Below, in pieces: positions 1,584-60,827 of a stretch of 64,000 nt of DNA (position 1 is the stretch's first letter; each line of letters begins with the position of its first letter). The stretch comes from Bacteroidota bacterium. GTDB lineage: Bacteria > Bacteroidota > Ignavibacteria > Kryptoniales > JAKASW01. The notes under the pieces were generated by a model, which did no database searches, was not told where the DNA came from, and was given only the letters and a program-made list of their open reading frames with translations. Position numbers and translations under genes: made by a program. The stretch spans positions 2,807 to 66,806 of the forward strand of contig JAKAGT010000022.1 of NCBI GenBank assembly GCA_021825585.1. The letters are read 5' to 3'.

Positions 1584-1605
1584 GATGTTTGCTGGAATAA
1601 TTTAC

Positions 1606-38472: not shown

Positions 38473-38478
38473 ACTTTC

Positions 38479-40008: not shown

Positions 40009-42253
40009 GAGGGTAAGAGCCGGCGGCACCTACACGTATCTTCTCGCCGTCGGCTTCATCTCGATCCTGGGACAAGTTGTGGTGCTTCGGGAGCTCAATG
40101 TAGCGTTTTACGGTATCGAACTGATTTACATCCTCTCGATCGGCTTCTGGCTCTCCGGGACGGCGATCGGCGCATCTGTAGGCCGCCACTCAGGCGTACC
40201 GGCGGAGAAGCAGATCGACGTGCTCCTGCTCGCCACTGCCGCAATTCTGTTGATGGACATCGGATTCATACGGGGTATGCGGAACATACTGGGCGGCGTC
40301 GTGGGCGGATATCTCCCTTTCACGAAGCAGATGATAGGATTGGCGATAGCACTGCTGCCGATCAGTTTCTTATCCGGGCTCCTGTTCCAATGGTGCGCAA
40401 AGAGATTCGTGTCGGAAAACCGATCATTCGCAAAGGCTTATGCCGTAGAGAGCGCCGGAGGTGTCCTCGGCGGACTGTCGTCAACCCTCTTCCTTAGTCT
40501 GGGGCTTCAAAACTTCTCTGCCGCGCTCATATGCAGCGTGCTCGCAGTTGCCATCGTAATGCTTTATGCCGGCCGCGCCGAAGATCCGGGCGTGAACCAA
40601 ATTGAGCCACAAGAGACAAGGAGACCCGGAGGCATCAAGTACTTTTCTGTCGCGGGATTACTGGGACTAATCATACTCTTCAGCTTCTCCCGAGAAGTTG
40701 ACCAATGGATGACTTCCTGGAATCACACCGGCCTGGTCGAGACGCGGGACACACCATACAGTCGTGTCACTGTGACGGCTCAAGGAGGGCAGGTCTGCGT
40801 CTTCGAGGATGACGCGCTTGCTTATGAGACTCAGAGCATCTCTGCCGAGGAGTTCGTTCAGCTTGCAACCCTGCAGTCGGTGAAGCCGGGAAGAGTGCTT
40901 CTCTTAGGAGGAGGATTCGAAGGCATCCTTCTTGAACTGCTGAAGCTCCCCCTGAAGGAGATCGACTACGTTGAAATCAACAGCGACATAATCGAGACGG
41001 TGCGCGGTCATTTGCCTGATGACCTTAGCAGTTCTCTGCATGATCGGAGGGTGGATATCATCTTTGGGGACCCGAGGCGGTTTCTTCATCGCCCGCGTTC
41101 CTATGACATGATACTTGTGGCTATGCCCGACCCCACGTCGGCACAGAACAATCGATTCTACACCAGAGAGTTCTTCGAAGAGTGTTCCGCGTTGTTGGAC
41201 AAGGACGGCATACTTGCCTTTGACATTCGCTCGGCGGAAAACCTATGGACACCGCAGATGCGGGCAAGAAACGGCAGTATCTTCCGTGCTTTGAAATCGG
41301 CTTTCAATTATGTCGTGGTTCTGCCCGGAGTGACAAACATATTCATCGCTTCACAATCCATGCTGAAGACCGACCCTGTCAGGCTTGCAGATCGATTCAA
41401 GGAGAGAGAGATTCAAGCCCGCCTGGTTTCTCCTGAGTACATAAACTACCTGTACACAAATGACAGGTTCGCCGCGGCGAACGAGATGCTTTCGTCGGGA
41501 TCACCTGTCGCCAACTCCGATTTTCGCCCGGCCTGTTACGGTTATACCATGTCAATCTGGTTGTCCAAATTCTTCCCAGATTTCGTATTACCGGCACCTC
41601 GCCCGTTGACAATCGCCAGCCTATCAGCCTCCGTGATCTTCTGGCTCGCGCTCGTCATCGTAATGGTAATAAGCATCAGCAGGCGACTGACGTCCGCGCG
41701 GCGGTTCGTGCTTGTAATGCTTGCAGGATTCACTGGCATGGTTACGGAAACGCTGCTCATGCTGAATTACCAGAGTAAGAGCGGGGTGCTTTACCAGGAC
41801 ATCGGTATCTTGCTGATGAGCTTCATGATAGGGCTGACACTTGGTGCATTTATTATCGACAGGCTTCTCCAATCGAGAATCCATCACGAGAAGCTCCCGG
41901 GCCGGCAACATCTTCATGTTATCGCCATCGGAGTCGCACTGCTTCTGGGCTTTGGCCTTCTGAACATGGCCGCATACTATTTTTTCAGACTTGGACTCCT
42001 TAACGGTCTGTATTCTACTTCCGTGGCTCTGATCCTGGACGGGTCATTCGTCTCGGCAACTTTTGCATTGGTTGTCATCAGAGAAACAGGGGACCGGAAA
42101 GGGCTTCCGATCAGGCTCTACTCCGCCGACCTTATCGGAGGAAGCTTAGGCTCCTTGATTGCCAGCCTTTTCCTCATACCTGTTTACGGAATACTCGTCG
42201 CGTCGATAATGATGGGGACCCTGGCGTTCTGCGGATTGGTTTTCCTAAGGTGA
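39980..42253 (+). CDS. polytopic membrane protein with central spermidine-synthase-like (aminopropyl/methyl-transferase fold) domain
   Basis: 757 aa. About 7 N-terminal and about 6 C-terminal TM helices flank a soluble domain. That domain has VLLLGGGFEGILLELLK...EIDYVEIN...DMILVAMPDPTSAQNNRFYTREFF, the spermidine synthase G-loop and D-x-x-DP...F(Y)T-x-EF motif. It overlaps the upstream gene by 29 nt. Confidence 0.7.
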   Translation: MSSAKQKFIERVRAGGTYTYLLAVGFISILGQVVVLRELNVAFYGIELIYILSIGFWLSGTAIGASVGRHSGVPAEKQIDVLLLATAAILLMDIGFIRGMRNILGGVVGGYLPFTKQMIGLAIALLPISFLSGLLFQWCAKRFVSENRSFAKAYAVESAGGVLGGLSSTLFLSLGLQNFSAALICSVLAVAIVMLYAGRAEDPGVNQIEPQETRRPGGIKYFSVAGLLGLIILFSFSREVDQWMTSWNHTGLVETRDTPYSRVTVTAQGGQVCVFEDDALAYETQSISAEEFVQLATLQSVKPGRVLLLGGGFEGILLELLKLPLKEIDYVEINSDIIETVRGHLPDDLSSSLHDRRVDIIFGDPRRFLHRPRSYDMILVAMPDPTSAQNNRFYTREFFEECSALLDKDGILAFDIRSAENLWTPQMRARNGSIFRALKSAFNYVVVLPGVTNIFIASQSMLKTDPVRLADRFKEREIQARLVSPEYINYLYTNDRFAAANEMLSSGSPVANSDFRPACYGYTMSIWLSKFFPDFVLPAPRPLTIASLSASVIFWLALVIVMVISISRRLTSARRFVLVMLAGFTGMVTETLLMLNYQSKSGVLYQDIGILLMSFMIGLTLGAFIIDRLLQSRIHHEKLPGRQHLHVIAIGVALLLGFGLLNMAAYYFFRLGLLNGLYSTSVALILDGSFVSATFALVVIRETGDRKGLPIRLYSADLIGGSLGSLIASLFLIPVYGILVASIMMGTLAFCGLVFLR

Positions 42254-42390: not shown

Positions 42391-44403
42391 CTACTCGAAA
42401 TCCAGATTCCACCTTTCGTAGAATTCCGACGGGACGACTTCTATGAACCTGCTCGGCTTCGTGAAAATCTTTCCGCTTTCGCGGTCGTACACGTTCATAG
42501 GGTAGGTGACGTACAAATTCTCTTTCGCGCGGGTGCATGCGACGTACATCAGTCTTCTTTCCTCTTCAATCGCCTCGTCGTCGTCCGTGGCATACATCGA
42601 CGGGAATTTCCCGTCCAGCGCCCAGATCAGGAACACGCTGTTCCACTCCAGCCCCTTCGCGGAATGGATCGTCGAAATCGTGATCTGTTCCTCTTTCATA
42701 TCCTTCTCGCCGAGATCGACCACACTCTCGGTCGGCGGCTCGAGCGCGAGGTCCGCGAGAAAAGTCTGAAGCGATTTGTATCGTTCGGCAATCGACGCGA
42801 ACATCACGAGGTCCTTTTCTCGTTTCGCATAGTCGTCGTACTTTTCGCGCATCAGCGGCTCGTAGTAGCGCAGAACCGACTCGACTTTCTCGATTGGCTT
42901 CGTGAACTTCTTCCCTTCCCCGGTAATGAAACCGATCAGCTCCTCCGCACTCGAGGGAATCTTCGTCTCTGCCCCTTGGCCGGCATCTTTCTCCCCGGTG
43001 CCGGCATGGGCAAGCCGGTCGAGAACCTTCTCGGCAACGCGCGGTCCGACGCCGGGATGCAGAAGCAGGATCCGGTGCCAACCGACTGCGTCCTGCGAAT
43101 TCTCAATTACTCTCAAGAACGCTACCACATCCTTTATATGCGCGGCCTCGACAAGCTTCATACCGCCGAACTTCACGTACGGGATATTCGCGCGCGTGAG
43201 CTCGATTTCAAGGTCAAAGGAAAGGTATGACGAACGGAAGAGCACCGCGATGTCGTTCAGGGTAATTCCCGCTTCACGCAGTTCCAGTATTCTCTGGACA
43301 ACAAACTTCGACTGCACGTTTTCGTTTTCCGTTCCGACGATAGCAGGCCTACCGCCCGCTTTCTTCCTCGAATACAACTCCTTTTCGTATTTCTCCTTCG
43401 CCGCGTCGATGACCTTGTTCGTAAAGTTCAGTATGCCCTGGCTCGAACGGTAGTTTTCGGTGAGTTTGATAATCTTGCAATTCGGGAAATAGGACGGGAA
43501 GTCGAAGATATTCTTGAAGTTCGCCCCGCGGAAGGAGTAGATACTCTGCGCATCGTCGCCGACGACCATTACGTTGTCTTTATCCATCCCGAGATATCTT
43601 ACAATCTCTCCCTGCACCTTGTTCGTATCCTGGAACTCGTCGACCATGACGTAGGCATACTTGCTCGTAATTGCCTTGCGAACGGATTCGTTCTGTGCGA
43701 GCAGCTCCCGGAGATTCTTCAGCAGATCGTCGTAATCCATGAGGTTGTATTTGCGCTTGTAATCGTCGAACTGTTTCTTCAGCTTCAGGATATCGTCAAT
43801 CTGTTCGATGAATCTCGGATATTCCTTGAAGACGATCTCGTCTATTTTCGTGAGAGTATTTTCCGATTTGCTGTATATATCGACGAGAGTTTCTTTTTTC
43901 GGAAAGCGCTGCGATTTCTTTTCCGGGCTCAGCCGCGTTCTAAGCAGGTTCACCACGTCGGCAGCATCGGAATCGTCGAGTATCGTGAACTGCTCGCCGT
44001 ATCCGAGGACCTTCGCATAATGCCTCAACGTCATGTTTGCGAACGAGTGGAACGTCCCTCCTGCCACATCCTCTGCCGAGGTAGACTTCAACAGCGCACC
44101 GGCGCGTTTTAACATCTCATTTGCCGCCTTGCGGGTGAATGTCAGAAGTAGTATCGACTGCGGATTACATCCCAGTTCGACGAGGTAGGCGACACGGTAG
44201 ATCAGGGTCTTGGTTTTTCCGGTACCCGCTCCTGCAATGACGAGCACCGGTACATCAATCGTCCGGACAACTTCGAGCTGGCCGGGGTTGAGGTCCTGCT
44301 CATAATTTATCTTGAATACACGCCGCTCGGCCTCGCCGACGACGCTCTTTTTTATCGTGTATCTTCTCTCGCGGCTCCCGCCGGAGTCTTTCTGAGAATC
44401 CAT
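42391..44403 (-). CDS. UvrD/PcrA/Rep-family SF1 DNA helicase
   Basis: 670 aa. Motif I VIAGAGTGKTKTL. Motif II MVDEFQDTN. Motif III VVGDDAQSIYSFRGA. Motif V-VI ...TIHSAKGLEW ... YVACTRAKENL. Confidence 0.85.
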   Translation of the reverse strand: MDSQKDSGGSRERRYTIKKSVVGEAERRVFKINYEQDLNPGQLEVVRTIDVPVLVIAGAGTGKTKTLIYRVAYLVELGCNPQSILLLTFTRKAANEMLKRAGALLKSTSAEDVAGGTFHSFANMTLRHYAKVLGYGEQFTILDDSDAADVVNLLRTRLSPEKKSQRFPKKETLVDIYSKSENTLTKIDEIVFKEYPRFIEQIDDILKLKKQFDDYKRKYNLMDYDDLLKNLRELLAQNESVRKAITSKYAYVMVDEFQDTNKVQGEIVRYLGMDKDNVMVVGDDAQSIYSFRGANFKNIFDFPSYFPNCKIIKLTENYRSSQGILNFTNKVIDAAKEKYEKELYSRKKAGGRPAIVGTENENVQSKFVVQRILELREAGITLNDIAVLFRSSYLSFDLEIELTRANIPYVKFGGMKLVEAAHIKDVVAFLRVIENSQDAVGWHRILLLHPGVGPRVAEKVLDRLAHAGTGEKDAGQGAETKIPSSAEELIGFITGEGKKFTKPIEKVESVLRYYEPLMREKYDDYAKREKDLVMFASIAERYKSLQTFLADLALEPPTESVVDLGEKDMKEEQITISTIHSAKGLEWNSVFLIWALDGKFPSMYATDDDEAIEEERRLMYVACTRAKENLYVTYPMNVYDRESGKIFTKPSRFIEVVPSEFYERWNLDFE

Positions 44404-46016
44404 TATTGCGGCACCGTAAAAAAGAATTTAGAACCTCTTCCCAACTGACTTTCGACCCAGACGCGTCCGCCGTGCAGCTCGACCAGCCTCCGTGTCAGCG
44501 CGAGGCCGAGTCCGACTCCTCTGTATTTTCTCGCGTACGGGTTTTGTGCCAGCTGCTCGAACGGTTTGAACAGCCTGTCGATGTCCTGGCTCTTGATTCC
44601 CATCCCGAAATCCTCGATGCAGAAATAGACGGAGCTCTCTTTCTTCCAGACCTTCAGGTTTATCCTCCCATCGGCGTGACTGAACTTCACCGCATTCGAA
44701 AGAAGGTTGATCACAATCTGACGCAGCTTCTGCGGGTCTGCATAAATGCTTTCGATCGGCTCCTTGTAATCCGTCACGACACTGATGTTCTTTTCCTGGG
44801 CCATCGGCTCGACGATACTGACCGCCTGGGTCAATTCGGCGGGAAGCTTGAAATGGGACCTTTCAAGTTTCAGACGTCCGATCTCGAGCCTCGACAAGTC
44901 GAGTAGGTCATTCACAAGCTCGAGCAGGTGTCTGCCGCTCGTGTTTATGTTCCCGATGAACTGCCGGGCCATCTCATGCGGCATATCGTTTATGTCCGTC
45001 TGCAGGACTTCACTGAACCCTATGATAGCGTTGAGAGGCGTGCGGAGTTCGTGGCTCATGTTTGCCAGAAATTCCGTCTTGGAACGGTTCGCGTTGTCCG
45101 CTTTTCGCCTCTGGACTTCAAGCGCGATTGTATTCTTCTGCATTTCTTCGAAGAGACGCGCATTTCGAAGTGCGAGCGAACACTGGTAGCCGAAGAGCTC
45201 GAGCAATACCTCAGGGTATTCATTCCCGGCAAAGAAACAACAGAGCAGGCCATCCGCCTTCCCATCTAGATGCAACGGGACAAACACTAACTGTCTTACC
45301 GCAGCAAGTTCCCGCGAAACCGGCAGGGGCCTGTTACCTGCCAGGATTCCAATGAACTCGTCCGTGCTGATGCCCGAATACAATCTACGGCTTTCCGCCG
45401 TCTTTCTGAGGAACCCCATCTTATCAGGCAGCAGCTCTAAATTCTTCAGGTTGATGTCCAAATACGCCGCGAGTTTCTCGAACGACTGGAGACCCTCTCC
45501 GGAATAATAACCTGAATCGACGATGTCCGAACGCGGATCGAACAGCAGGAGTACTGAGAGGTAGGCACCCGCTATCTCAGCCCCTTTCGATACAATTCGC
45601 CGAAGGACGTCATGCATACTTCCGGGGGAAGCGAGGGCCATGCTGTTTTCTTCAAGCTTGAGGAGATGCCTGGAAAACTTATTCGTCTCGTTCGTTGCGT
45701 CTCTGCTTTCAAGGGCACTCCTGTATTCCAGGATCCCCGGTATCAGTTTCCTTATTCCATATCCCGCCAGGCAAATGCCGCACAGATACAATCCGAAGTA
45801 TCTGACGATATCATAGGGGAGCCTCCACCGATCCCCGACAAGAAATCTGAGGTTGCTCAGCGCGAGTCCGGCAGTTATCAACACAAGGCCTGCCCGGATG
45901 TTATTCCAGCCGGCGAGTTTTCCGCCCCGGTCCCGCCCGGGATAAAACAGTGTGAACGATGTAATGGAGAGCATTACCAAGAAAGCTGCAACCCGGTAAA
46001 CTACGAACGGCATCAC
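44403..46016 (-). CDS. membrane sensor histidine kinase (TM + GAF-like + HisKA + HATPase_c), no cognate response regulator adjacent
   Basis: 537 aa. About 4 N-terminal TM helices. H-box SHELRTPLNAIIGFSE. N/G boxes LLSNAVKF ... GVGLGLALTRRLVELHGG. Confidence 0.85.
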   Translation of the reverse strand: MMPFVVYRVAAFLVMLSITSFTLFYPGRDRGGKLAGWNNIRAGLVLITAGLALSNLRFLVGDRWRLPYDIVRYFGLYLCGICLAGYGIRKLIPGILEYRSALESRDATNETNKFSRHLLKLEENSMALASPGSMHDVLRRIVSKGAEIAGAYLSVLLLFDPRSDIVDSGYYSGEGLQSFEKLAAYLDINLKNLELLPDKMGFLRKTAESRRLYSGISTDEFIGILAGNRPLPVSRELAAVRQLVFVPLHLDGKADGLLCCFFAGNEYPEVLLELFGYQCSLALRNARLFEEMQKNTIALEVQRRKADNANRSKTEFLANMSHELRTPLNAIIGFSEVLQTDINDMPHEMARQFIGNINTSGRHLLELVNDLLDLSRLEIGRLKLERSHFKLPAELTQAVSIVEPMAQEKNISVVTDYKEPIESIYADPQKLRQIVINLLSNAVKFSHADGRINLKVWKKESSVYFCIEDFGMGIKSQDIDRLFKPFEQLAQNPYARKYRGVGLGLALTRRLVELHGGRVWVESQLGRGSKFFFTVPQ

Positions 46017-46019
46017 ATG

Positions 46020-47582
46020 CTAAATCGTTCTGGAGTATTCGGAAGTGTCGAGCTTCCACACGGGTACACCGCAATAGCGCTTTCCCTCCGGGCAGTACGG
46101 GGTGGTGCCTGCCATTGACCTTACAGTACACGGAGGCAGCAGGAATTTCCCAAGCGCAGGATGCACTTGTTTTATTTGCTCGACTTCATCGAGGGAAGCA
46201 TTCCAGATTTCTTCCTGTGCGTTGTAACAGAGCCGCATTTCTGCCTTGTGATGAAGGTTGAGCAGGTCCGCGGACTCGGTAAACCTTATCGGAAAAGCGT
46301 TCGGTAGAAGGTAGGCGGCAAATTCGGTGCTGACGCCGAGAGATATGAGTCTGTCTATCGATTCCCATGTCACGTTCATAGTCCGCCTGTAGAGTCTCTC
46401 CGCCTCGTCGTCCAGCAGGACCAGCTTCGGCACTATGTAATCAGGTTCGCTTCTCATGTGTTCTGCGATGATGGGTCTCGAACCTGGAGTCATCCTGTGA
46501 CGCTGGTCCTGAGAATCGGCGGTATGGCTCAGCTTCTTCCTGAACGTGTAAGACGCGTGGTAGAGAGCCCTGGATATCTTGTCGTGTGTGGTCAGCACGA
46601 GCGAGCTCTGGAGCACTTTGTTGCGCACCGGATCAATCGCAAGCGCTATCGCCTCGGAGTCGGACAGTTCCGAAGAGCTTCTGCCGAGGACCTCCCTGAC
46701 CGCACACGCTATGACCTTTTCTGAGTTCGCCTTATAGTCGACGAGTTTAGAGACATGGTCGCCCAGCTCGCGGTCGAATTCCCCGATGAAGTCCGACTGC
46801 GCTTCGTGGTTCCCGATATTCTCGTTTGAGAAGAATTTCTCATCGAGCGGTTCATCGATAACCAGCTGGTAATTCGGGTCGAACTTCAGGAGCTCCCGTA
46901 CCATCATGTCGACGACAATCTGCTGTTCGTAGGGAGTGTCGCCGGACTTGGACATCTTGGCATACCTTAGAAGCGTTATGCCGCTCACGGTATGGTAGAG
47001 ATATGAAAACGTCGCGACAGGAAGCACGTATCTCGCGATTTCCTGCGCCTTCTTTTTGATTTCGCCTGCAAAGCGCTTGTCGTTTCCGCGCCTCGGAAAC
47101 ACTGCCAGGTACGCTCTGCCTGCCGGCCTCATCAGCAGCTCGACGAGTTTCCGGTAAGCCTGGATCTGTACGCCCGCGGTGTTCGTATAGACCTCCAGGG
47201 CCTCGCCCTTCAGCGGAGGCACAAAGAAGTTTCCATCCTTTACTTCGACATACCGCTGGCTTACCTGCTCGGAATTGTAAAACGGATGTGAATGCAGGAA
47301 CGACCAGATGAATTGCCGCGAGACATCCGAGAGCTGAAACTGAAACGTCGCATGTTGAAAGGTGGTATGATGCCCTGCCTCATAGATGTCCAGTGCCAGG
47401 CTGCGATACCTGTCCATTTCGATCGACTCATCCTCTATAATCCCCTTCGAGGAATAGCAGGTCCGGGCGGCTGCAATGACATTTTTGAACGAGTTGGCAA
47501 AAGCCTTGACGAGTTTAACCTGCGGGGGCCGTGAAACCCCGCCTTCGTATCTATTTTCAATCCGAACTGTCTCTTCCGACAT
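46020..47582 (-). CDS. tandem-domain ThyX-like protein (FAD-dependent thymidylate synthase family)
   Basis: 520 aa, about twice the usual ThyX length. The N-half has LHSHPFYNSEQVSQRY, the shape of the ThyX R-H-R-x7-8-S-x-R-Y signature with HSH in place of RHR. The C-half has QDQRHRMT (RHR present) but no following SxRY. Confidence 0.6.
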   Translation of the reverse strand: MSEETVRIENRYEGGVSRPPQVKLVKAFANSFKNVIAAARTCYSSKGIIEDESIEMDRYRSLALDIYEAGHHTTFQHATFQFQLSDVSRQFIWSFLHSHPFYNSEQVSQRYVEVKDGNFFVPPLKGEALEVYTNTAGVQIQAYRKLVELLMRPAGRAYLAVFPRRGNDKRFAGEIKKKAQEIARYVLPVATFSYLYHTVSGITLLRYAKMSKSGDTPYEQQIVVDMMVRELLKFDPNYQLVIDEPLDEKFFSNENIGNHEAQSDFIGEFDRELGDHVSKLVDYKANSEKVIACAVREVLGRSSSELSDSEAIALAIDPVRNKVLQSSLVLTTHDKISRALYHASYTFRKKLSHTADSQDQRHRMTPGSRPIIAEHMRSEPDYIVPKLVLLDDEAERLYRRTMNVTWESIDRLISLGVSTEFAAYLLPNAFPIRFTESADLLNLHHKAEMRLCYNAQEEIWNASLDEVEQIKQVHPALGKFLLPPCTVRSMAGTTPYCPEGKRYCGVPVWKLDTSEYSRTI

Positions 47583-47590
47583 CGGAACTC

Positions 47591-48823
47591 CTATACCATT
47601 CTTTTTATAACTACCAGGGTCTTATCATCAGCATACTTGGACGATGCCGAAAACTTCTGCACACTCTCCATAAGGTGATAACAGATCTCTCGCGGGGACA
47701 GATCGGCGACCTCAGACAATCTTCTCTTCAGTCTATCTTCACCGAAAAACGCGAAATCGCTGTCGGTAGCTTCCGTAATTCCGTCCGTGTAAAGGAGAAG
47801 GATATCGCCCTTCTCAAAATTGACGTTCCCGACTCTGTACTTCGCATCGGGCGCGACTCCAAGAGCGGGTCCTGTCGTGTCGAGTTGAAGTATCTCTGAC
47901 TTATGCTTGCTGAAAAAGATCGGCTGATTGTGTCCTGCATTCACATAAAGAAACAGTCCGCTTTTCTCGTCCGTAAATTCGCCGTAAAAAAGGGTTACGA
48001 AACGTGAATCGGAAAAAGTCGAGTTGACAAGATTGTTTATCTTCTTAACCAGCGAAGCCATGTTCGTCTGAAGCTCCACTCCCATCTTCAATGCACCCGA
48101 GACATACAGGGCTTCAACGGCTGCGCTCAACCCCTTGCTCGCTGCATCCCCGATGGCGACGCCGAGCCGCTCGCCATCTTCACCAGCCGGGAGATAATCG
48201 AAGAAGTCGCCTCCCACCACCCGTTCGGGTATCGATACACCAAACATCTTATATGACCCGTATTTCTGCTCATGATCCGGGAGGATGCTGCGCTGGATGT
48301 CTCTCGCCTTGTCCAGATCCTGTTCAAGCTGCTTCGTCCGGGCGAGAGCATGCCTGCCGCGCAATACCGCCGTGGCAGCGCTTCCGATAACATTCAGATT
48401 GTCGAACAACTCGGGATTTTCCCCATCTGTGTTGAAGGCGAGGATGTACTGGTAAAGCGGGATTCCCTTCACCTTCAGTTTCTCGCCGACGCCGGTTGCG
48501 GAATAACTTTCTATGCCCCCCTTCCGAAGAGCCTGGTTCCGTTCAGATGTAAGCAATGTCTTCTGGCTGCCGATCCGGACGAAGTCGAGATACTCGGAGA
48601 CCTTAATCACGAAACCTTCCGATAAGGATCTGACCTGCCCGAGCTGCTTCACAAGGACATAGGCATTCTTCCTCGGAATGAGTTTCCAGATTCTCCCGCC
48701 TTTGATTCTGATTTCATCGGAACTTATAATCTCCTGCACCACACTCGCCAGTACTTCTTCATCGTTCTTATGATCTTTGGATGCAATTTTTTCAATCGCG
48801 TGATAGAGCTGTCTTTGATTCAT
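47591..48823 (-). CDS. GAF-like sensor domain + PP2C/SpoIIE-family serine phosphatase
   Basis: 410 aa. The C-terminal half has GGDFFDY ... GDAASKGLSAA ... NAGHNQP ... LLYTDGITEA (SpoIIE/RsbU-type PP2C). The ~170-aa N-terminal domain is of sensor (GAF-like) size. Confidence 0.8.
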   Translation of the reverse strand: MNQRQLYHAIEKIASKDHKNDEEVLASVVQEIISSDEIRIKGGRIWKLIPRKNAYVLVKQLGQVRSLSEGFVIKVSEYLDFVRIGSQKTLLTSERNQALRKGGIESYSATGVGEKLKVKGIPLYQYILAFNTDGENPELFDNLNVIGSAATAVLRGRHALARTKQLEQDLDKARDIQRSILPDHEQKYGSYKMFGVSIPERVVGGDFFDYLPAGEDGERLGVAIGDAASKGLSAAVEALYVSGALKMGVELQTNMASLVKKINNLVNSTFSDSRFVTLFYGEFTDEKSGLFLYVNAGHNQPIFFSKHKSEILQLDTTGPALGVAPDAKYRVGNVNFEKGDILLLYTDGITEATDSDFAFFGEDRLKRRLSEVADLSPREICYHLMESVQKFSASSKYADDKTLVVIKRMV

Positions 48824-50343
48824 CAGTAGTTAATCTTTCTCCATCGTTCCACGACATTATCGACGTCAACTGCGGGCGGAAGTATACTCCACTTGGTGTA
48901 GAAATCGACATCTTTGCTTCTTGGAAATGGATTTGGCGCGTCAATCTTTGTGCGCAGAGGAAGAATGCATGCATCACCGAGGAGGAGGCCCTCGCCCTGC
49001 TTGAGTGCGGGAACAATGTCAAGAAGATCCGACATCGAATCGGGGACCAGCTTGGCGATGTAGGCCTGGTCGTCAGGGTTTGACAATCGCAATGCGACGA
49101 AGTTGCTGCACTGGGACAGTATGGACTCCGAGATATCCAGCGGACGCTGCCCCACGATCATACAACTGACGCCGTATTTTCTCCCTTCCTTGACGACGCG
49201 CTCGATCGTCCTGCGGGCTGTCTGCGATGAGCTGTGATCGCTCAAATAATTATGCGCTTCTTCGAGCACAAGAAGGATGGGCACGTTCGCACGATACGGG
49301 TTCCACATGTTGAAGTCGAACACCAGCCTGGCAAGCAGCGAGACAAGACCGTTGATCACCTCCGGCGGCACGTTGCTCAGGTTCAGGACGACAACCGACT
49401 TCCCGGATTTCAAACCGAACAGCGATTCAATCAGCTGTGAAAATGTCTCTGTTGACCTAAACCTCTTAGGCTTGAACAGGAATTCGAAGCGCTTGTCATT
49501 CATCCGCGAATCGAATTTGAATACAAACCTGGTGAAATTCCCGTAGAACGGGCCCTCTTTACCGTCCTGGAGCCGCTCCGTATCGAGGGCCTGCATCTTT
49601 ACCTTGATGTCGTTTATGTCGAAATACACCGGCGAATCCACCGTGATGAAGTCCTTGTACGGAAGATTCTTAAGTCTCTTGCTGTTGACAATTATCTCCG
49701 AAAGGGCCACTGTTTCCGTTCGCGCGAACGGGTCGTCGCGGTCGATAAAAGTTTCCGCAAACTCGTCAAAATTCATGGCCCAGTACGGAAGTTCGAACTC
49801 GCCGATGTTCAGCTTTTCGGCAAGGTCTCCGAAGGCTTCACCATATTCGTCATGCAGATCGAGCAGGATTATGCGCGCGCCCGGGAGCTTCGCAACCTTC
49901 TGCAGTATCGAGGCAACTGCGCAGGATTTACCGGAACCGGTCGCACCGACAACCGCGACATGTCTGCTGAAGAACTTGTCCGGGTCTATGTAATTCTTTT
50001 TCCCCTCCAGGGCGGATATGTCTCCGAAGGCGAAATCGTACCTGCGGTACGCGTTGAATACTAAATCGAGTTCCGCCTCCGAGGGTATGTCGACAGGCGC
50101 ACCCGGCCACGGGAGCTGTTCCGTCCCGCGCTCGAACTTCCCGGCTCCGAAACGTCCGAACAGGTTCGCAGAGAACTTGACTACGTCCCCCTCACCCATT
50201 TCGAGAGACGTGACCACGCCGATGATCCTGTAATCGTGCATCGACACCGAGACAAATGATCCGACGCTGAAGCTCTCGGCGGCAAGTGTCTCACCTGTTA
50301 TTGTGGCCCCGCGGACTGAAACGACTTTGCCGATTGGTCCCAT
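48823..50343 (-). CDS. HerA-like (DUF87/FtsK-type) P-loop ATPase
   Basis: 506 aa. N-terminal small barrel (IGKVVSVRGATITGE...IIGVVTSLE). Walker A VAVVGATGSGKS. Walker B ARIILLDLHDEY. Later LVLEEAHNY and MIVGQRP motifs are typical of HerA/DUF87 ATPases. Confidence 0.75.
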   Translation of the reverse strand: MGPIGKVVSVRGATITGETLAAESFSVGSFVSVSMHDYRIIGVVTSLEMGEGDVVKFSANLFGRFGAGKFERGTEQLPWPGAPVDIPSEAELDLVFNAYRRYDFAFGDISALEGKKNYIDPDKFFSRHVAVVGATGSGKSCAVASILQKVAKLPGARIILLDLHDEYGEAFGDLAEKLNIGEFELPYWAMNFDEFAETFIDRDDPFARTETVALSEIIVNSKRLKNLPYKDFITVDSPVYFDINDIKVKMQALDTERLQDGKEGPFYGNFTRFVFKFDSRMNDKRFEFLFKPKRFRSTETFSQLIESLFGLKSGKSVVVLNLSNVPPEVINGLVSLLARLVFDFNMWNPYRANVPILLVLEEAHNYLSDHSSSQTARRTIERVVKEGRKYGVSCMIVGQRPLDISESILSQCSNFVALRLSNPDDQAYIAKLVPDSMSDLLDIVPALKQGEGLLLGDACILPLRTKIDAPNPFPRSKDVDFYTKWSILPPAVDVDNVVERWRKINY

Positions 50344-52986
50344 CTATTCTTCCTTTTCCGCCATTTTCTTGATCTCGGCAATCTTGTTAAGCGCTTCGAC
50401 CGGAGTGAGGTTGTCAACATCGACATCCTTGATTTTCCTTCGAAGCTCTTCGTCGCCAAGCTGGAACATTTCAATCTGAAGGTCGCCGCTCCGGGCTTTC
50501 GAAAGGACGCGGCGCGGTTTCGGCATTCCTGCAGCGGGCTGTGCCGCCGCAGACTCGGTTGCCGAAAGTTCAAACGACTCGAGGTTCCTGAGAATTTCTT
50601 TTGCACGCGAGGTTACCGCCCTGGGCAGACCTGCCATCTCGGCCACGTGAATTCCGTAACTGTGGTCGGCGCTCCCCTCGACAATCTTGTGGAGGAAGAT
50701 CACTTTGCCGCCGTATTCCCTCACGTCGGCCTTGAAGTTCTTCACACGCGGATAAAGATCCGACAGGTCGTTCAGCTCGTGGTAGTGAGTGGCAAAAAGC
50801 GTTCGCGCGGCGCGCGAAGGATTCTGATGAAGGTATTCCACCATCGACCAGGCGATAGACACGCCGTCGAAAGTGCTCGTGCCTCTCCCGATCTCGTCAA
50901 GCAGGACGAGACTTCGTGATGTGGCGTTGTTGAGAATGTTCGCCGCCTCCTGCATCTCGACCATGAACGTGCTTTCGCCCGCACTGATGTTATCCGAGGC
51001 GCCGATCCTGGTAAACATCTTGTCCACGACGCCTATCCGTGCCCTCCTGGCGGGAACAAACGAGCCGGCCTGTGCCAGAAGTATTATGACGGCAATCTGT
51101 CGGATGAAGACGCTTTTGCCGGCCATATTCGGGCCGGTTATGAGCGCAATCTGTTCCTTCCCTTCTTTCAAAACAATGTCGTTGGGCACGAAGCTTTCGC
51201 CGCTCGGCAGGACTCTCTCGACGACCGGGTGCCGTCCCTCTTCAATTTCCACATCGCGCGAATCATCGACGGTCGGCCGGACATAATTGTTTTCATACGC
51301 AGTCTTAGCAAATGACAGAAGCAAATCGGTCAATGCTATAGCCCGTGAAGTATCCAGGAGGGATGAAGAATGCGAGGCGACATCATCGAGCAGCTTTTCG
51401 AACAGCTCCGTCTCCAATTTCTGAATCTTCTCCTCCGCGTGCAGGACTTTCTCTTCGTATTCCTTCAGCTCCTGGGTGATGAAACGCTCGGCGTTGACAA
51501 GCGTCTGCTTCCGGATATAATTCTCGGGGACGCGAGAGAGATTCGATTTGGTAACCTCTATATAGTAACCGAAGACGGTGTTATAATCGACTTTCAGAGA
51601 CGGAATCCCGGTACGCTGGCGCTCGGTCACCTGCATCCTGGCAATCCAGTCCTTGGCGTTGAAGGCAAGGTCGCGCAGCTCATCAAGTTCCGCCAGATAG
51701 CCTTTCCTTATCACGCCTCCGTCGGAAGCGCGGGCGGGAAGATCGTCGGCCAGAGACTCCGACAGCTTCTTCAAGAGTTCGGCTTCCGGGCTGATCTGCG
51801 AATGCGTCACCCGCCAGAGCTCGCATTTAAGCTCTCCGGCCCGCTCCCTGATAGCAGGGAGCCTCGACAACATCGTGCGAAGAGCCCCGAGTTCACGCGG
51901 GGAGGCACGTTTGGTCGAAACGCGCGCTACAAGTCTTTCAAGGTCTCCAAAACCGGAGAGATGGCTGCTCAACTCGCCCCTTACCCTCGAATTTTTCAGC
52001 AGTTCTTCCACCGCATCAAGCCTCGCGGTAATTTCCGCGACCTTCTTCAGCGGCTGCAAAAGCACGCGCCGAAGCATCCTGGCGCCCATCGCAGTCTCGG
52101 TCGAGTCGAGAATGCCGACCAACGTCGCGCCGCTTTCCACGGCGCTGTCGACGATTTCGAGGTGCTTTCGGCTCGTGCGGTTTATTTCCAGAAAATCGGT
52201 GGACGTGAATTCGGACATGCCGACGATGTGCGACAAGTTCCCGTTCTGCGTCTCGGCAAGATAATCGAGCGAGGCTCCCGCCGCCTGTATCGCCAGCGGC
52301 CTGGACTCGAGGCCGTAACCCTTCAGACTCTGTACCTTGAAATGATGTATGAGCTTGTCGTATGCGTAGTCGAAGTTGAATATATAATCGTCGCGCCTGG
52401 TGACGATCGCTTTTCTCAGGCAATTCTGAATCAGAGGTTCGAGGTTGTCGGCCATGTTCCGCGGCACCACTACCTCCAGCGGCTCGATCCTCGTAAGATA
52501 GGTCTCGATCTGGTCCAGCTCACCCTGTGCGAAGTTGAACTCTCCTGTGGTCGCGTCGCAGAACACGAGTCCGAAGTTCCTGTCATCCGTCGTCAGGGTT
52601 GCGAAGTAATTGTTCACCCTGTCGGACTCGTTGGAGAAGTTGACACCCGGTGTGACAACCTCGACGATATCGCGTTTAACTATACCCTTCGCGAATTTCG
52701 GATCTTCCATCTGCTCGCAGACCGCGACCCTGTAGCCCGCCTTGACAAGCCTGGGAAGATACTGATTGATCGCGTGGTGAGGGAAGCCGGCGAGAGGAAT
52801 ATCTGCGGCGGCGCCGTTGGCACGTCTCGTCAATGTCAGAGACAAGACCGAACTCGCAATCTTCGCGTCCTCTTCGAAGGTCTCATAAAAGTCGCCCATC
52901 CTGAACAGCACTACGGCGTCAGGATAGCGGTCCTTGACCTTTCGGTATTGCATCATCAATGGTGTGATCGGGCCGCCCTTACTCAT
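50344..52986 (-). CDS. mutS: DNA mismatch repair protein MutS
   Basis: 880 aa. N-terminal TPLMQQY...FRMGDFYETF mismatch-binding motif. Walker A ITGPNMAGKS. LLDEIGRGTSTFDG. FATHYHEL. Confidence 0.95.
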   Translation of the reverse strand: MSKGGPITPLMMQYRKVKDRYPDAVVLFRMGDFYETFEEDAKIASSVLSLTLTRRANGAAADIPLAGFPHHAINQYLPRLVKAGYRVAVCEQMEDPKFAKGIVKRDIVEVVTPGVNFSNESDRVNNYFATLTTDDRNFGLVFCDATTGEFNFAQGELDQIETYLTRIEPLEVVVPRNMADNLEPLIQNCLRKAIVTRRDDYIFNFDYAYDKLIHHFKVQSLKGYGLESRPLAIQAAGASLDYLAETQNGNLSHIVGMSEFTSTDFLEINRTSRKHLEIVDSAVESGATLVGILDSTETAMGARMLRRVLLQPLKKVAEITARLDAVEELLKNSRVRGELSSHLSGFGDLERLVARVSTKRASPRELGALRTMLSRLPAIRERAGELKCELWRVTHSQISPEAELLKKLSESLADDLPARASDGGVIRKGYLAELDELRDLAFNAKDWIARMQVTERQRTGIPSLKVDYNTVFGYYIEVTKSNLSRVPENYIRKQTLVNAERFITQELKEYEEKVLHAEEKIQKLETELFEKLLDDVASHSSSLLDTSRAIALTDLLLSFAKTAYENNYVRPTVDDSRDVEIEEGRHPVVERVLPSGESFVPNDIVLKEGKEQIALITGPNMAGKSVFIRQIAVIILLAQAGSFVPARRARIGVVDKMFTRIGASDNISAGESTFMVEMQEAANILNNATSRSLVLLDEIGRGTSTFDGVSIAWSMVEYLHQNPSRAARTLFATHYHELNDLSDLYPRVKNFKADVREYGGKVIFLHKIVEGSADHSYGIHVAEMAGLPRAVTSRAKEILRNLESFELSATESAAAQPAAGMPKPRRVLSKARSGDLQIEMFQLGDEELRRKIKDVDVDNLTPVEALNKIAEIKKMAEKEE

Positions 52987-53264
52987 CTGCTTCGGATTGA
53001 TTTTTTCCTGAAATTAAGTGTCGACGCAACTTCTATGACACGGAGAAAGCCCGCATATTTTCCCCTGTCGCGAAAACAATTGTCTCCGCCGGAAAGGACG
53101 GTAAGTTGCAGGGTTTCCTCTCTGTTTCTCACGTGTGCTTAGAATATACTTGAGGGGTAAAAGTTTATCAAGAAGCGACACGGCGAAGGATAAGACTGGT
53201 GGAATGAGAAACATCTCTCCAACGCTTGAATGAGTAAGCGAGATCATAGACGGAAAAAGAAGCT

Positions 53265-53939
53265 CTATTGCTCCTCTCGTTTCTCGAAAATCTTATCAGA
53301 CAGTCCCGTGTTTATCTTGTAGTTTGAATAGTAGACTTCCACCGTCCCCTTCATCTGGTTCATCTGCATTCGTCGGCCTTCGAACTCCCGGCCCTGTGTA
53401 TTCACCTTTCCGATGTCCAGTTTTACATCGACTTTTACAGGCATCATGAAACCATCAAACTCTCCATAGGTTATCTTGGCGCTTGCAGTCCTGCCGGGAG
53501 AAGGTGCTGTGCCGATCTCCCGGATCAGCCAGTCCTTTTCGTCGATAGTCAGGACAATGTCATGATTTCCGGATTCGTCTTTCTTCGGAGTCAGCGAAAG
53601 CCGGACGGCCGGTTCACCTTCATAAGTCAGGGTATCCAGGACCTGAATCACATACTTATCGGGATTGAATTTCCTCGGATTGATGACTCCCACTTCCCTC
53701 GGCATGAAGAAAAGTCCCTTTGAATCGATCTTCACTTTGTCCGGCTCCTTGAAATAGACTTTGGCTTCCATGTCGGGCGCCTTGACGGCCTCGAGGTCGA
53801 GATGCACCTTCACATCAACCACGTAGCCTTTTATCCCCTTGAACTTCGCGATTGCATTATCGAGGTACTTCAATCCTTCGTTCTGCGCCGGCGGAGAAAC
53901 AAGGAACAGTAGTCCGAACAATATTGATAACAGGTTCAT
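53265..53939 (-). CDS. secreted LolA-like / outer-membrane-lipoprotein-sorting-like protein
   Basis: The track ORF 53265..54593 is an artefactual extension. The real start is MNLLSILFGLLFLVSPPAQN (complement of 53939-53937), which overlaps the ABC-2 permease stop by 1 nt. 224 aa with a signal peptide and an all-beta pattern resembling LolA-like proteins. The fold call is from sequence feel only. Confidence 0.5.
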   Translation of the reverse strand: MNLLSILFGLLFLVSPPAQNEGLKYLDNAIAKFKGIKGYVVDVKVHLDLEAVKAPDMEAKVYFKEPDKVKIDSKGLFFMPREVGVINPRKFNPDKYVIQVLDTLTYEGEPAVRLSLTPKKDESGNHDIVLTIDEKDWLIREIGTAPSPGRTASAKITYGEFDGFMMPVKVDVKLDIGKVNTQGREFEGRRMQMNQMKGTVEVYYSNYKINTGLSDKIFEKREEQ

Positions 53940-54781
53940 CAGCTCTTTATGTCCTTTCTGACGAATACGAAACAGGCAATGGCAAAGAAGACAGCGTCGT
54001 ACCCTAGCAGTGCAAGTGCATATTTGCCGACTTCGCCCCAGTCGACCGGGCTGTTTAAAAGCAGCTGCCAGATGCCCATGTAGGTTGTGAATAAATACGG
54101 CCGCAGCGATTCCAGAAATTCGAACGGTAAACTCCCAATGACGAAGGATATTATCACCACGGCGATCGATCCGATTATCGGGCCGATGGAATTGTCGACG
54201 AGAGTCGAAAAAAGAAACGCGAGTGAACCGACAACCGACATCGACAATATAGCCGCGATGAATGCCAGCACAGTGCTCATCGCAGCGTCGTGCGCCGGGA
54301 GAATCACGATGTGCGGCATCGACGTTTGAAACCTTATCAGATCCCCGCCGCCGAAGAATGCGAGCCCAATCCCGATGCAGAGCGTACCCATGAACAGGAT
54401 CAGCAGAGCGGTGTAGAACAACATCGCGAAGAACTTGGCCGTAAATATCTTCGACCGGGAAGGGGGGCGTATCAGGATGAATCTGAGAGTCCCGGAAGTA
54501 GCTTCCGAAGAGACCATGTCGCCGGCGACGAGCGCTACCAGGAACGGCACGTGAATGTAGAGCGAGTTCATTATGAAAGCTGTGATCACCCATGCGTTAA
54601 GCATACTTCCGGAGATCAGGAAGTCGCCGCTCATGCCGTGCGAGAAATTCTGTGCCATCCTCGCCTCGTTGAGCTTTATGATTACCTCCAGCAAGATGAC
54701 AGCGCCTGCTACTACGACGAAGCCGATGTACGTGCGCCAGCGGCGGAAGGTCTTCTTGACCTCGATCGAGAAGAGGCTCAT
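53939..54781 (-). CDS. ABC-2-type exporter permease
   Basis: 280 aa with 6 TM helices. It overlaps the upstream ATPase stop by 4 nt. Confidence 0.75.
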   Translation of the reverse strand: MSLFSIEVKKTFRRWRTYIGFVVVAGAVILLEVIIKLNEARMAQNFSHGMSGDFLISGSMLNAWVITAFIMNSLYIHVPFLVALVAGDMVSSEATSGTLRFILIRPPSRSKIFTAKFFAMLFYTALLILFMGTLCIGIGLAFFGGGDLIRFQTSMPHIVILPAHDAAMSTVLAFIAAILSMSVVGSLAFLFSTLVDNSIGPIIGSIAVVIISFVIGSLPFEFLESLRPYLFTTYMGIWQLLLNSPVDWGEVGKYALALLGYDAVFFAIACFVFVRKDIKS

Positions 54782-55692
54782 ACTTCCGACGCTCCTTCCG
54801 TCACCTTGAGGAAGTAGTCTTCAAGGGACCGCTTGGCCGCAAAAGAGGAAACGTCCAAACCGCCCGTAACAAGAAGTTTGTTCAGCTCGGCCGCCCTACG
54901 GGACTCGATGCGGACTTCGATTCCATTCCCGACGGACACGACTTCAACCCACGGATTCTTTTTCAGAAGTTCGAGAGCGCCCTCCTGTGGCGAAACCAGA
55001 ATCGAGTAGTAAGAGGAGTCGCCTCCGAGAAGATCGGATACGGGTCCCTGCGCTATCAATTCTCCGTGATTCAGGACGGCCATCCTGTTGGCGACTGCTT
55101 CCACCTCCGTGAGGAGATGCGAAGAGAGAAATATTGTCGTGCCATGCTCCTTTGAGAGTTTGAGGACGAGCTCGCGCACCTCCTTCATGCCCTGCGGATC
55201 GAGTCCCGACGTCGGTTCATCGAGGATCACAAGGTCGGGTTTGGTGAGGATCGCCTGGGCGATCCCGAGACGCTGTTTCATGCCGTGAGAGAATGTCTTC
55301 ACCTTGTCGTCAGCCCTGGCAATGAGTCCTACAATCTCAAGCGCCTCCAGTATCTCTTCCCTTTTCACTTTGCGCGTGAGTGAACCGAGGACCTCCAGGT
55401 TCTTGTATGCAGAAAGATACAGGTAGAAATCCGGCTTTTCGACTATGCCGCAAACTCTTGAGAGCACGGATCGCCTTTCCTCCCTCGCGTCCTTCCCGAA
55501 AATTCTCACGCTTCCGGAAGTCGGAAGGAGGAGTGTCAGGATCATCCTGATCGTGGTGCTCTTGCCGGCACCGTTAGGCCCGAGGAAGCCAAACACATCT
55601 CCGGCATTTACTTCAAGGTTCAGGTCCTTGACCGCCCACCGGCTGCCGAACCTCTTGCTGAGGCCTGCAGTCCGCAATATAGCCTCTGACAT
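54778..55692 (-). CDS. ABC transporter ATP-binding protein (ABC-2/DrrA-like)
   Basis: 304 aa. Walker [10 protein letters not shown]. Signature [14 protein letters not shown]. Walker [14 protein letters not shown]-terminal accessory domain. Confidence 0.9.
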
Positions 55693-57700: not shown

Positions 57701-58321
57701 GTGAGTGATGAAGTGGCAAGGAAAGAGAACATACAAAATATCGCCAGGCGGAAGGAGCAGATCATCAAAGCTGCAATTACCGCCTTTGCACGAACCGGCC
57801 TGAAAGGTACCAGCATGAACGACATCGTTCGGGAGTCCGGCCTGAGCAAGGGTGCGATATACTGGTATTACAAGAGCAAAGATGAGCTGATATCGGACCT
57901 GCTCAAGGAATTCTTTGACCCAGAAGAGATCAAGAAGGTCGGAGAGGTGCTTGTTACGGGTACTGCTCTTGAGCGGCTGGAGAAATTCATCGGCTATACA
58001 ATTGAAGAAATGAATAAGATGCAGCGGTTCAGACCGGTCCTCCAGGAGTTGTTCGTAATAGCCTCAAGAGATCAGAAAATCAGAAAAATGGCAAAGAGGG
58101 ACTTCCGGGTCGGTGTCGCGCTTCTGCAGTCGGTCATCGAGTATGGCGTGAAGAGCAAGGAATTCCGAAAAGTAGACCCCAACATGGTCGCGATCGCGAT
58201 CTTTGAGATAATTGAGGGCACCGCCCTCTTCTGGTCGCTTGATCTTATGGATGTTGATTTTGAAAAACAGATGCGCGAAGGGATCAACCTGATTTTAGAC
58301 GGGATTAAGGTGGAAAAATGA
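57701..58321 (+). CDS. TetR/AcrR-family transcriptional regulator
   Basis: 206 aa with a GTG start. HTH region GLKGTSMNDIVRESGLSKGAIYWYYKSKDEL. Confidence 0.85.
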   Translation: MSDEVARKENIQNIARRKEQIIKAAITAFARTGLKGTSMNDIVRESGLSKGAIYWYYKSKDELISDLLKEFFDPEEIKKVGEVLVTGTALERLEKFIGYTIEEMNKMQRFRPVLQELFVIASRDQKIRKMAKRDFRVGVALLQSVIEYGVKSKEFRKVDPNMVAIAIFEIIEGTALFWSLDLMDVDFEKQMREGINLILDGIKVEK

Positions 58322-60699: not shown

Positions 60700-60717
60700 A
60701 ATGAAATTCCAATTTAG

Positions 60718-60827
60718 AATTTGTTTAGAGCTTAGAGTTTCGTGCTTAGAATTTCTTCCAGTGGCACACTGGATGGTTATCTGATGATAAGCAGGATTGC
60801 CTGGCGCAACATATTGCGGAACAAGAG
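60718..60827 (+). repeat. 110-nt block, copy 1, near-identical to 63313-63422
   Basis: Direct comparison gives 109/110 identical; the only difference is C at 60731 versus T at 63326. The block covers 66 nt of non-coding leader plus the first 44 nt of the D-type permease CDS. It contains the hairpin CCAGTG-GCA-CACTGG (60758-72) and four TTAGA motifs. Confidence 0.9.

Follow-up and report, generated by a model that had tools for sequence, protein, structure and literature searches.

Pairs of a HerA ATPase and an effector enzyme are generally regarded as abortive-infection systems that move horizontally and whose HerA ring switches on a destructive enzyme. Described anti-phage systems of this kind include SIR2-HerA, for example in Paenibacillus sp. 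453MF and E. coli (PDB 8xau and 8su9/8j4u; PMC11472057, PMC11514289, PMC13434337), and DUF4297-HerA (PMC11291478, PMC12198126). HerA also belongs to the HerA-NurA complex, which carries out DNA end resection in archaea and Deinococcus-Thermus (PDB 4d2i; PMC12977600). Here we describe a HerA-like ATPase paired with another kind of enzyme, a Ser/Thr phosphatase of the PP2C (SpoIIE/RsbU) type with a predicted GAF-fold sensor domain, which we call GAF-PP2C. Both genes belong to a cluster of six minus-strand genes (mutS, herA-like, GAF-PP2C, thyX-like, a sensor histidine kinase (HK) and uvrD-like) at positions 42391-52986 of a 64,000-nucleotide (nt) stretch of contig JAKAGT010000022.1 from a Bacteroidota bacterium of the Kryptoniales (GCA_021825585.1). 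This whole stretch is referred to as the window.

In the full-text literature that we searched, HerA together with PP2C or SpoIIE appeared in unrelated papers only, and a phosphatase partner goes unmentioned both in a recent classification paper on Sir2-HerA and in a survey of HerA/FtsK capture systems. Within that literature, the HerA-PP2C pairing is apparently undescribed. The original prediction, made from the sequence of the locus alone, had offered three readings of the six genes: a signal-regulated module for DNA maintenance or nucleotide supply, a HerA-based system with a non-canonical partner set, or a coincidental compaction of housekeeping genes. The comparison of related loci presented below draws the functional boundary more tightly, around HerA and GAF-PP2C.

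Results

HerA and GAF-PP2C adjoin in two gene orders

Close homologues of the cluster proteins come from metagenome-assembled genomes (MAGs) of Candidatus Kryptoniota, and we mapped the six proteins and the flanking genes onto 22 species-level loci of that group. HerA homologues with 45-51% identity were found in MAGs under the label Bacteroidota or Chlorobiaceae, and homologues of their PP2C partners carry the label Ignavibacteria. Eleven non-Kryptoniota neighbourhoods were examined (L030, L031, L033, L034, L118, L119 and L037-L041; L numbers designate loci throughout).

In Kryptoniota, HerA is followed by PP2C in 22/22 loci, mostly with a spacing between a 1-nt overlap and a 0-nt gap. The order is inverted in the Ignavibacteria-type loci and in L039 and L040, where in 11/11 a PP2C gene of 409-411 amino acids (aa) precedes a co-directional HerA gene by 4-29 nt. 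The two genes are adjacent in all of these loci (33/33) despite the inversion and the turnover of their other neighbours. Their divergence is also matched, with identities for either protein of 72-96% among Kryptoniota and of about 50% in Ignavibacteria-type genomes. Close Kryptoniota-level homologues of the two proteins fall into 35 and 36 clusters at 90% identity, many of which share contigs. The pairing can be read directly from these loci, as can the position of its HerA from the tree described below, and we consider it very probable that HerA-like and GAF-PP2C constitute a functional module.

Some loci carry a further gene beside the pair. DUF1684 recurs as an immediate neighbour: in seven Ignavibacteria-type loci (L030, L031, L033, L034, L041, L118 and L119) it lies upstream of PP2C, and in L117 (4125-4817) it follows a PP2C-less HerA. 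The window has no DUF1684 gene, and hardly anything has been published on this family.

PP2C-linked HerAs form a clade next to anti-phage HerAs

We placed the protein in a tree built by neighbour joining from 109 HerAs, and 94 of these were used for 100 bootstraps. All PP2C-linked HerAs, a subclade linked to two-component proteins and a few partnerless HerAs form a single clade (100/100). Within it, the Kryptoniota HerAs are monophyletic (100/100), as is the remainder of the clade (83/100). Because PP2C partners occur on both sides of this first split, PP2C pairing is by parsimony ancestral to the clade. Its outgroups and nearest relatives are SIR2- and DUF4297-linked HerAs. Genome and metagenome scans showed that HerAs at 36-40% identity have a SIR2 gene (Pfam SIR2_2, PADLOC SIR2) upstream, across a 3-nt gap, and that HerAs of a more distant group (e.g. 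L086) are preceded by a DUF4297 anti-phage protein (NF042945, 480 bits against a cutoff of 300).

The sister subclade (L043, L046-L048 and L050; 43-46% identity) is without PP2C and is flanked by signalling proteins. Their architectures are REC-HisKA-HATPase, CHASE3-HAMP-GAF-HK-REC, GAF-HK, PAS-HK-REC and X-REC, the last with a 340-aa N-terminal region that has no assigned domain. The X-REC protein was considered as a divergent PP2C, and this was ruled out. The association of HerA with two-component proteins is a second undescribed type of HerA-signalling link. Since either PP2C or two-component proteins adjoin its members, the clade appears to have been wired repeatedly to signalling enzymes, not to SIR2 or nuclease effectors.

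Beside the PP2C-less HerA of L032, in a MAG labelled Acidobacteriota, a 398-aa open reading frame (ORF) lies on the opposite strand (6595-7791, minus). We considered this ORF as an alternative HerA partner, and it is probably unrelated: its only match is a weak, IS481-transposase-like one (37 bits against a cutoff of 224). Possibly it is what remains from an event that disrupted the HerA/PP2C pair.

The HerA-like protein resembles HerAs of defence complexes

Pfam recognizes DUF87 (1.7e-30) and HerA_C in the HerA-like protein. Its Walker A motif (GATGSGKS), its Walker B motif with the catalytic Glu (LVLEEAH) and its arginine-finger region (GRKYG...QRP) are invariant in an alignment of 32 homologues, so that at the level of sequence it has the features of an active FtsK/HerA-superfamily ATPase. 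The best library model is the PADLOC HerA PDLC04105, which matches over nearly the full length with 450 bits. The closest PDB sequences are likewise the HerAs of defence complexes (9c1m, 8ziq and 8xau; E 5e-90), and the match to the repair HerA 4d2i is much weaker (E 2e-29).

The NCBIfam models for individual HerA families all score below their cutoffs. The two anti-phage models give 371 bits (HerA_antiphage_2, cutoff 850) and 169 bits (HerA_antiphage, cutoff 800), and the repair-HerA models give 107 bits (NF040819, cutoff 970) and 136 bits (NF040937, cutoff 800). Judged by these scores, the HerA-like protein appears to be a member of a clade related to anti-phage HerA and to represent another equivalog. 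It is collinear with SIR2-linked HerAs, apart from deletions in the N-terminal beta-barrel that are most marked in Kryptoniota.

The partner is a SpoIIE-family phosphatase with a predicted GAF domain

Residues 217-408 of the phosphatase match the SpoIIE domain (PF07228) with 155.6 bits against a cutoff of 25, and its relatives in the PDB include Rv1364c, SpoIIE and SiaA. The metal-binding residues D206, D209, D226, D347, D399 and D400 are invariant in 42 homologues, as are many positions of the GAF core and parts of the first helix. Judging by the invariant metal ligands, the enzyme is probably a catalytically competent phosphatase.

The GAF label that the original prediction had put on the N-terminus is missed by Pfam, which gave no match to a GAF domain there, and is borne out by modelling. 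An AlphaFold2 (AF2) model of residues 1-180 has a pLDDT of 86.9 (full-length model, 86.7), and a Foldseek search against the PDB matched the N-terminus to the GAF domains 6ob8, 3ci6, 3k2n and 3oov with probability 1.0, E-values of 1e-6 to 1e-5 and TM-scores of 0.58-0.68. The N-terminus is thus predicted to adopt a GAF fold. When the GAF domain by itself was used as query, an exhaustive phmmer search of 1.84 billion proteins returned 70 representatives. Those of greatest length measure 400-448 aa, matching this one architecture, and the remaining ones are shorter sequences; from the uniform length of the longest, the domain appears to be restricted to the GAF-PP2C architecture.

A cryptic nuclease or SIR2-like domain in the N-terminus was ruled out by the GAF fold and by hhalign probabilities of 0.1% against SIR2 and against the 398-aa ORF of L032. 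The protein has no match in PADLOC. We also found no gene for a STAS protein, an anti-sigma factor or a GHKL serine kinase near PP2C, whether in the cluster, among the scanned window ORFs (about 36) or in the annotated neighbourhoods of related loci. In L039 a gene for a sensor-HAMP-class III adenylate/guanylate cyclase (1437-3590) lies 31 nt upstream of the GAF-PP2C gene. A cyclic nucleotide monophosphate was considered as the GAF ligand on this account, and a single locus with an adjacent cyclase is too thin a basis for such a claim.

The six-gene cluster is tightly packed and its full order is lineage-specific

Re-reading the ORFs and junctions of the cluster (Table 1) against the ORF map and the junction sequences gave the same six ORFs and the same spacing as had been reported, from a 1-nt overlap up to an 8-nt gap. 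The mutS stop codon TAG directly abuts the herA-like ATG, and the herA-like/PP2C junction reads TGATG, a 1-nt overlap. PP2C and thyX-like are separated by 8 nt and thyX-like and HK by 3 nt, and HK and uvrD-like overlap by 1 nt. The earlier remark that neither a nuclease partner nor a response regulator is visible was also correct for the scanned window ORFs: none of them was found to encode a response regulator or a nuclease, nor a STAS protein or a Ser/Thr kinase.

Table 1. Features of the six-gene cluster, its upstream region and the parts of GAF-PP2C
Feature	Position in window	Strand	Description
mutS	50344-52986	-	880 aa, MutS1
herA-like	48823-50343	-	506 aa, hexameric ATPase
GAF-linker-PP2C (SpoIIE/RsbU-type) Ser/Thr phosphatase	47591-48823	-	410 aa
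GAF-fold sensor domain of PP2C (predicted)	48416-48823	-	residues 1-136; AF2 and Foldseek
Linker helix of PP2C (predicted)	48284-48415	-	residues 137-180, 44 residues, leads into PP2C core
thyX-like, double length	46020-47582	-	520 aa
Sensor histidine kinase (HK)	44403-46016	-	537 aa; GTG start, alternative ATG 3 nt downstream
uvrD-like, UvrD/PcrA-family superfamily 1 helicase	42391-44403	-	670 aa
Intergenic region upstream of mutS	52987-53264	-	278 nt; ORF map

Tight packing is unremarkable for this genome, because 18/41 same-strand junctions in the window (44%) measure 10 nt or less, and we ruled out the tight junctions as special on this ground. The six-gene run is the longest in the window; by our own estimate, a run of five tight junctions is expected about 0.3 times per window, and the spacing of the cluster exceeds chance only weakly. 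The six genes are probably co-transcribed. Terminator-like sites occur at background frequency (14 found, 14.1 expected), and those inside the cluster are no commoner than in shuffled sequence. The region upstream of mutS is the likely promoter region, as it is the sole sizeable non-coding gap on the minus strand near the cluster. It contains a sigma70-like site on the minus strand (53171-53143) that agrees with the consensus at 10/12 positions, a consensus match only, with Bacteroidota-type promoters outside the scan.

The full six-gene order was seen in Candidatus Kryptoniota only. There, mutS-herA-pp2c-thyX is intact in every locus with enough flanking sequence, mutS lies directly upstream of the herA-like gene, and the thyX-like gene is kept in all loci. 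The HK gene is missing in L008 and L018 and is present only as a remnant in L015; in L005, L012, L015 and L029 no uvrD-like gene follows downstream, although the sequence there continues for more than 5 kb. Unrelated genes for an ABC ATPase and a LolA-like protein upstream of the cluster are conserved in most Kryptoniota loci and are about as syntenic as the cluster, so synteny at 75-96% protein identity says little about function. In no non-Kryptoniota locus examined does a thyX-like, HK or uvrD-like gene lie near HerA. With the order confined to Kryptoniota, variable there and no better conserved than its unrelated flanks, we rejected it as evidence of function. The adjacency of thyX, HK and uvrD mostly reflects lineage-specific synteny and genome compaction.

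These comparisons bear on each of the earlier readings. The six genes are unsupported as a unit for DNA maintenance or nucleotide supply: the test proposed for that idea, conservation of the exact gene order across relatives, found an order that is not kept outside Kryptoniota and from which HK and uvrD drop out within it. Coincidental compaction is largely the right description for thyX, HK and uvrD, but it does not extend to HerA and PP2C with their unbroken adjacency. The notion of a HerA system with non-canonical partners holds in a narrower form, in that the partner is the single GAF-PP2C gene and not the whole set. Two elements of the original prediction keep some substance: HKs recur beside HerA in the sister subclade, and mutS lies near the pair in two other lineages (L040 and L118).

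In L040 (1-6485) mutS is two genes upstream of the pair, in the tightly packed series mutS-166 aa-DUF3109-PP2C-HerA, and in L118 (1-9575) it is nine genes upstream of PP2C-HerA on the same strand. It is absent within 5-8 kb of the pair in the other eight or so non-Kryptoniota loci. The occurrences in L040 and L118 indicate that mutS proximity is older than Kryptoniota, and a single-copy gene would be unlikely to turn up near the pair in three lineages through chance events independent of one another. Eroding ancestral synteny is the simplest reading, because the lineages are related and L118 has a long array of unrelated genes between mutS and the pair. As a functional hint toward DNA transactions, the proximity is weak.

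Other genes of the cluster and the window

The mutS product is by its domain content a true MutS1 with domains I-V, matching all five Pfam domains, NF003810 (1017 bits, cutoff 480) and TIGR01070 (938 bits, cutoff 642). Two features antisense to mutS were dismissed as incidental. One is a perfect 12/12 sigma70 match (TTGACA-16-TATAAT) at 51494-51521 on the plus strand, the hexamers of which vary at mutS wobble positions in relatives. The other is a 590-aa ORF at 51370-53142 on the plus strand, which measures 152-468 aa in relatives.

The typical ThyX motif is RHRxxxxxxxS. The double-length ThyX-like protein contains two Pfam Thy1 stretches and narrowly passes TIGR02170 (96.3 bits, cutoff 87.9), and its match to solved ThyX structures reaches only E 1e-7. 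Its N-terminal half has HSH in place of RHR and keeps SQRY, and its C-terminal half has RHR at residue 361. The protein may be a fused pseudo-dimer with complementary half-sites.

The HK has HisKA and HATPase_c domains, and hydrophobic segments at residues 1-25 and 42-62 predict a membrane anchor. It is the least conserved member of the cluster (58-68% identity). It has a sensor region of about 300 aa at the N-terminus, possibly GAF-like in appearance, which has no relative in the PDB, and no response regulator (REC) for it lies adjacent, elsewhere in the cluster or among the scanned window ORFs. A ligand common to the HK sensor and the PP2C GAF domain was considered and rejected, as the two regions show no similarity. 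The UvrD-like protein matches Pfam UvrD-helicase (238 bits) and UvrD_C (197 bits) and stays under every NCBIfam equivalog cutoff (PcrA 416 bits against 911, UvrD 367 against 1144, Rep 367 against 951).

Elsewhere in the window, the regions 6476-13656 (minus), 59470-63302 (plus), 53265-55692 (minus) and 57701-59163 (plus) together encode a large expansion of MacB/FtsX-type ABC permease paralogues, a TetR regulator, an ABC ATPase and a pair of LolA-like proteins. Six of the permeases were confirmed by Pfam, and several neighbouring ORFs of similar size look alike. At 37231-42253 on the plus strand there is an AmmeMemoRadiSam system, in which a fused Memo-AMMECR1 protein (509 aa) is encoded after a radical-SAM gene. 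A spermidine-synthase-like protein of 757 aa comes next, and the block and the uvrD-like gene are convergent.

Discussion

The closest described relatives of this HerA serve in anti-phage defence, and the pair might be expected to do the same. In that case GAF-PP2C would be a third effector variant: on infection HerA would activate the phosphatase, and dephosphorylation of host or phage proteins would arrest growth. This would suit a HerA whose nearest relatives belong to bona fide SIR2-HerA and DUF4297-HerA pairs, which keeps all ATPase motifs and which shares with them a tightly coupled two-gene layout and an enzyme partner of similar size. PP2C-linked HerAs also score 450-508 bits with PDLC04105, in the same range as SIR2-linked ones. 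The mode of inheritance points the other way. SIR2-linked HerAs (L022-L026) are 77-93% identical across MAGs of Phycisphaerae, Terriglobia, Burkholderiales and Dehalococcoidia, and such identity across four phyla suggests recent horizontal transfer, although cross-binning in soil MAGs is possibly responsible instead. PP2C-linked HerAs, unlike these, track taxonomy, with 75-88% identity within Kryptoniota and 45-49% to other lineages. Moreover, the conservation of HerA and PP2C is roughly on a par with that of MutS and UvrD from the same genomes, and in two lineages the pair occupies a fixed chromosomal position among housekeeping genes. Viral contigs yielded no relative, the plasmid matches were limited to generic PP2Cs and distant HerAs of the defence type (at most 36% identity), and no tRNA, Rfam element, flanking repeat or mobile-element gene was found that would mark an island around the pair, on which basis we rejected a mobile-element origin. 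Taken with the PP2C that PADLOC does not recognize, this makes a role in defence rather unlikely, and we prefer the reading of a domesticated module with vertical inheritance to that of an active defence system.

Other explanations differ in how far the functional unit extends. At one extreme, the six genes would form one signal-regulated DNA-maintenance operon, with MutS, HerA, UvrD and ThyX acting on DNA and on the supply of deoxynucleoside triphosphates while PP2C and HK exert control. The genes are co-directional and closely spaced (1-nt overlap to 8-nt gap), internal terminator-like sites are no commoner than in shuffled sequence, mutS-herA-pp2c-thyX persists in Kryptoniota, mutS lies upstream of PP2C-HerA in L040 and L118, and sensor kinases flank HerA in the sister subclade. 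Yet the thyX-like, HK and uvrD-like genes are missing from every non-Kryptoniota neighbourhood examined, and HK (L008, L018) or uvrD (L005, L012, L015, L029) has been lost within Kryptoniota, where order is in any case uninformative at 75-96% identity given that the upstream genes for an ABC ATPase and a LolA-like protein show about equal synteny. With 44% of same-strand window junctions equally tight, and with an HK sensor that is unrelated to the PP2C GAF domain, a single six-gene operon of this kind seems to us improbable. At the other extreme, no genes would be coupled, and even the adjacency of HerA and PP2C would be inherited synteny in a slowly rearranging, compact lineage. Such a genome is indeed compact (18/41 tight junctions), long co-directional arrays of unrelated genes occur elsewhere, for example in L118, and the lineages that bear PP2C all come from one broad group (Kryptoniota and Ignavibacteria-type). 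However, the adjacency holds in 33/33 loci while other neighbours change and gene order inverts, HerA and PP2C have diverged in step, the GAF domain is restricted to this architecture, and the 1-nt start/stop overlap suggests translational coupling. We regard the complete absence of coupling as very hard to sustain.

How might the domesticated pair work? Phosphatases of the RsbU/SpoIIE type are activated via an N-terminal regulatory domain and a linker helix. In the solved SIR2-HerA complex, the alpha1 helix of SIR2 is locked between a pair of HerA's beta-barrel domains (PMC11472057). By analogy with these two precedents, we propose a model where GAF-PP2C binds to the HerA hexamer at its beta-barrel face, as the effectors of SIR2-HerA do, and where the ATP and DNA-engagement state of HerA would gate phosphatase activity. 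The output would be dephosphorylation of a phospho-Ser/Thr target encoded elsewhere, that is, signalling and not NAD+ depletion or DNA cleavage. The GAF domain may provide a second input, through a ligand or a protein contact. The existence of a physical HerA-PP2C complex, the way in which control runs between the two, and both signal and substrate are inferred. As a whole, a domesticated effector-HerA module including the gating mechanism is our best explanation, and on balance a likely one.

Several points weigh against this explanation. A GAF-PP2C homologue (P0199, L035/L036) is without an adjacent HerA, and HerAs of the same clade occur without PP2C (L032, L117, L042, L044 and the HK/REC subclade). 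The phylogeny is by neighbour joining only, on metagenomic ORFs and with an uncertain root. No kinase or phospho-substrate gene was found nearby, in the cluster or among the scanned window ORFs, and the signalling output is conjecture. Finally, the nearness of mutS to the pair in Kryptoniota, L040 and L118 could be a real mismatch-repair link that a reading by synteny alone underrates.

A broader idea extends the domesticated module to the two-component subclade. GAF-PP2C/HerA and HK/REC-HerA would together form an unrecognised class of housekeeping signalling, in which a DNA translocase drawn from effector-HerA immunity senses DNA ends, unusual DNA or ATP status and switches a phosphatase or a His-Asp phosphorelay; the ancient proximity to mutS would then reflect its role. 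We offer this tentatively, as a possibility that we do not expect to prevail in full. If it were true, there would be a pathway from DNA state to phosphosignalling in Kryptoniota and Ignavibacteria-type bacteria.

Beyond its mechanism, the pair changes how effector-HerA arrangements may be viewed. In a well-supported sister clade, the destructive effector is replaced by GAF-PP2C or by HK/receiver proteins, and the pair behaves as a core, vertically inherited one. Should the gating hold true, an immune-type scaffold would have been re-used for housekeeping signalling, or evolution would have run in the reverse direction. Gating would also be a new regulation of RsbU/SpoIIE-type phosphatases, and the pair would be a candidate sensor of DNA status in phyla for which genetics is nearly absent. 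Two cautions follow from the locus. HerA matches from defence-finding tools should not be read as defence systems without the partner gene, and what looked like an attractive six-gene repair operon is mostly compaction and lineage synteny.

Comparison with known systems

The likeness to MutS-MutL-UvrD mismatch repair lies in a true MutS1 and a UvrD-family helicase encoded in the cluster. However, no mutL is present among the scanned window ORFs, the helicase falls under the UvrD, PcrA and Rep cutoffs and is absent in four Kryptoniota genomes, and only gene proximity ties the HerA/PP2C pair to the pathway. With HerA-NurA the pair shares a HerA-family hexameric ATPase, and mutS and uvrD-like genes are present in the Kryptoniota neighbourhood; unlike that complex, it has no NurA, Mre11 or Rad50 in the cluster or among the scanned window ORFs.

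The phosphatase itself resembles enzymes of the RsbU/RsbP/SpoIIE type (3ke6 Rv1364c, 3t91/5ucg SpoIIE and 6k4e SiaA) in its SpoIIE-family core, its metal ligands and its combination of a sensor domain with a long helix. It departs from them in its surroundings, with no STAS, anti-sigma or serine-kinase genes nearby and HerA as the conserved neighbour, and in the narrow distribution of its GAF domain.

Among the immune systems, DUF4297-HerA is similar in combining a HerA hexamer with one effector gene. Here, in contrast, no DUF4297 nuclease is adjacent, the partner is a phosphatase and HerA identity is only about 36%. The resemblance to SIR2-HerA comprises the same HerA subfamily (PDLC04105) at 36-40% identity, full-length collinearity, retained ATPase motifs and a tightly coupled two-gene layout with an enzyme partner of 340-410 aa. 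In other respects the two differ. The HerA_antiphage_2 score of 371 bits is far from the cutoff of 850, no SIR2 gene is adjacent (Pfam, PADLOC), and the partner is GAF-PP2C, for which the hhalign probability against SIR2 is 0.1%. SIR2 is always upstream of HerA in the loci sampled, whereas the gene order of HerA and GAF-PP2C is variable. The beta-barrel, on which the effector is held in SIR2-HerA, is trimmed here, and inheritance of the HerA/GAF-PP2C pair is vertical and chromosomal.

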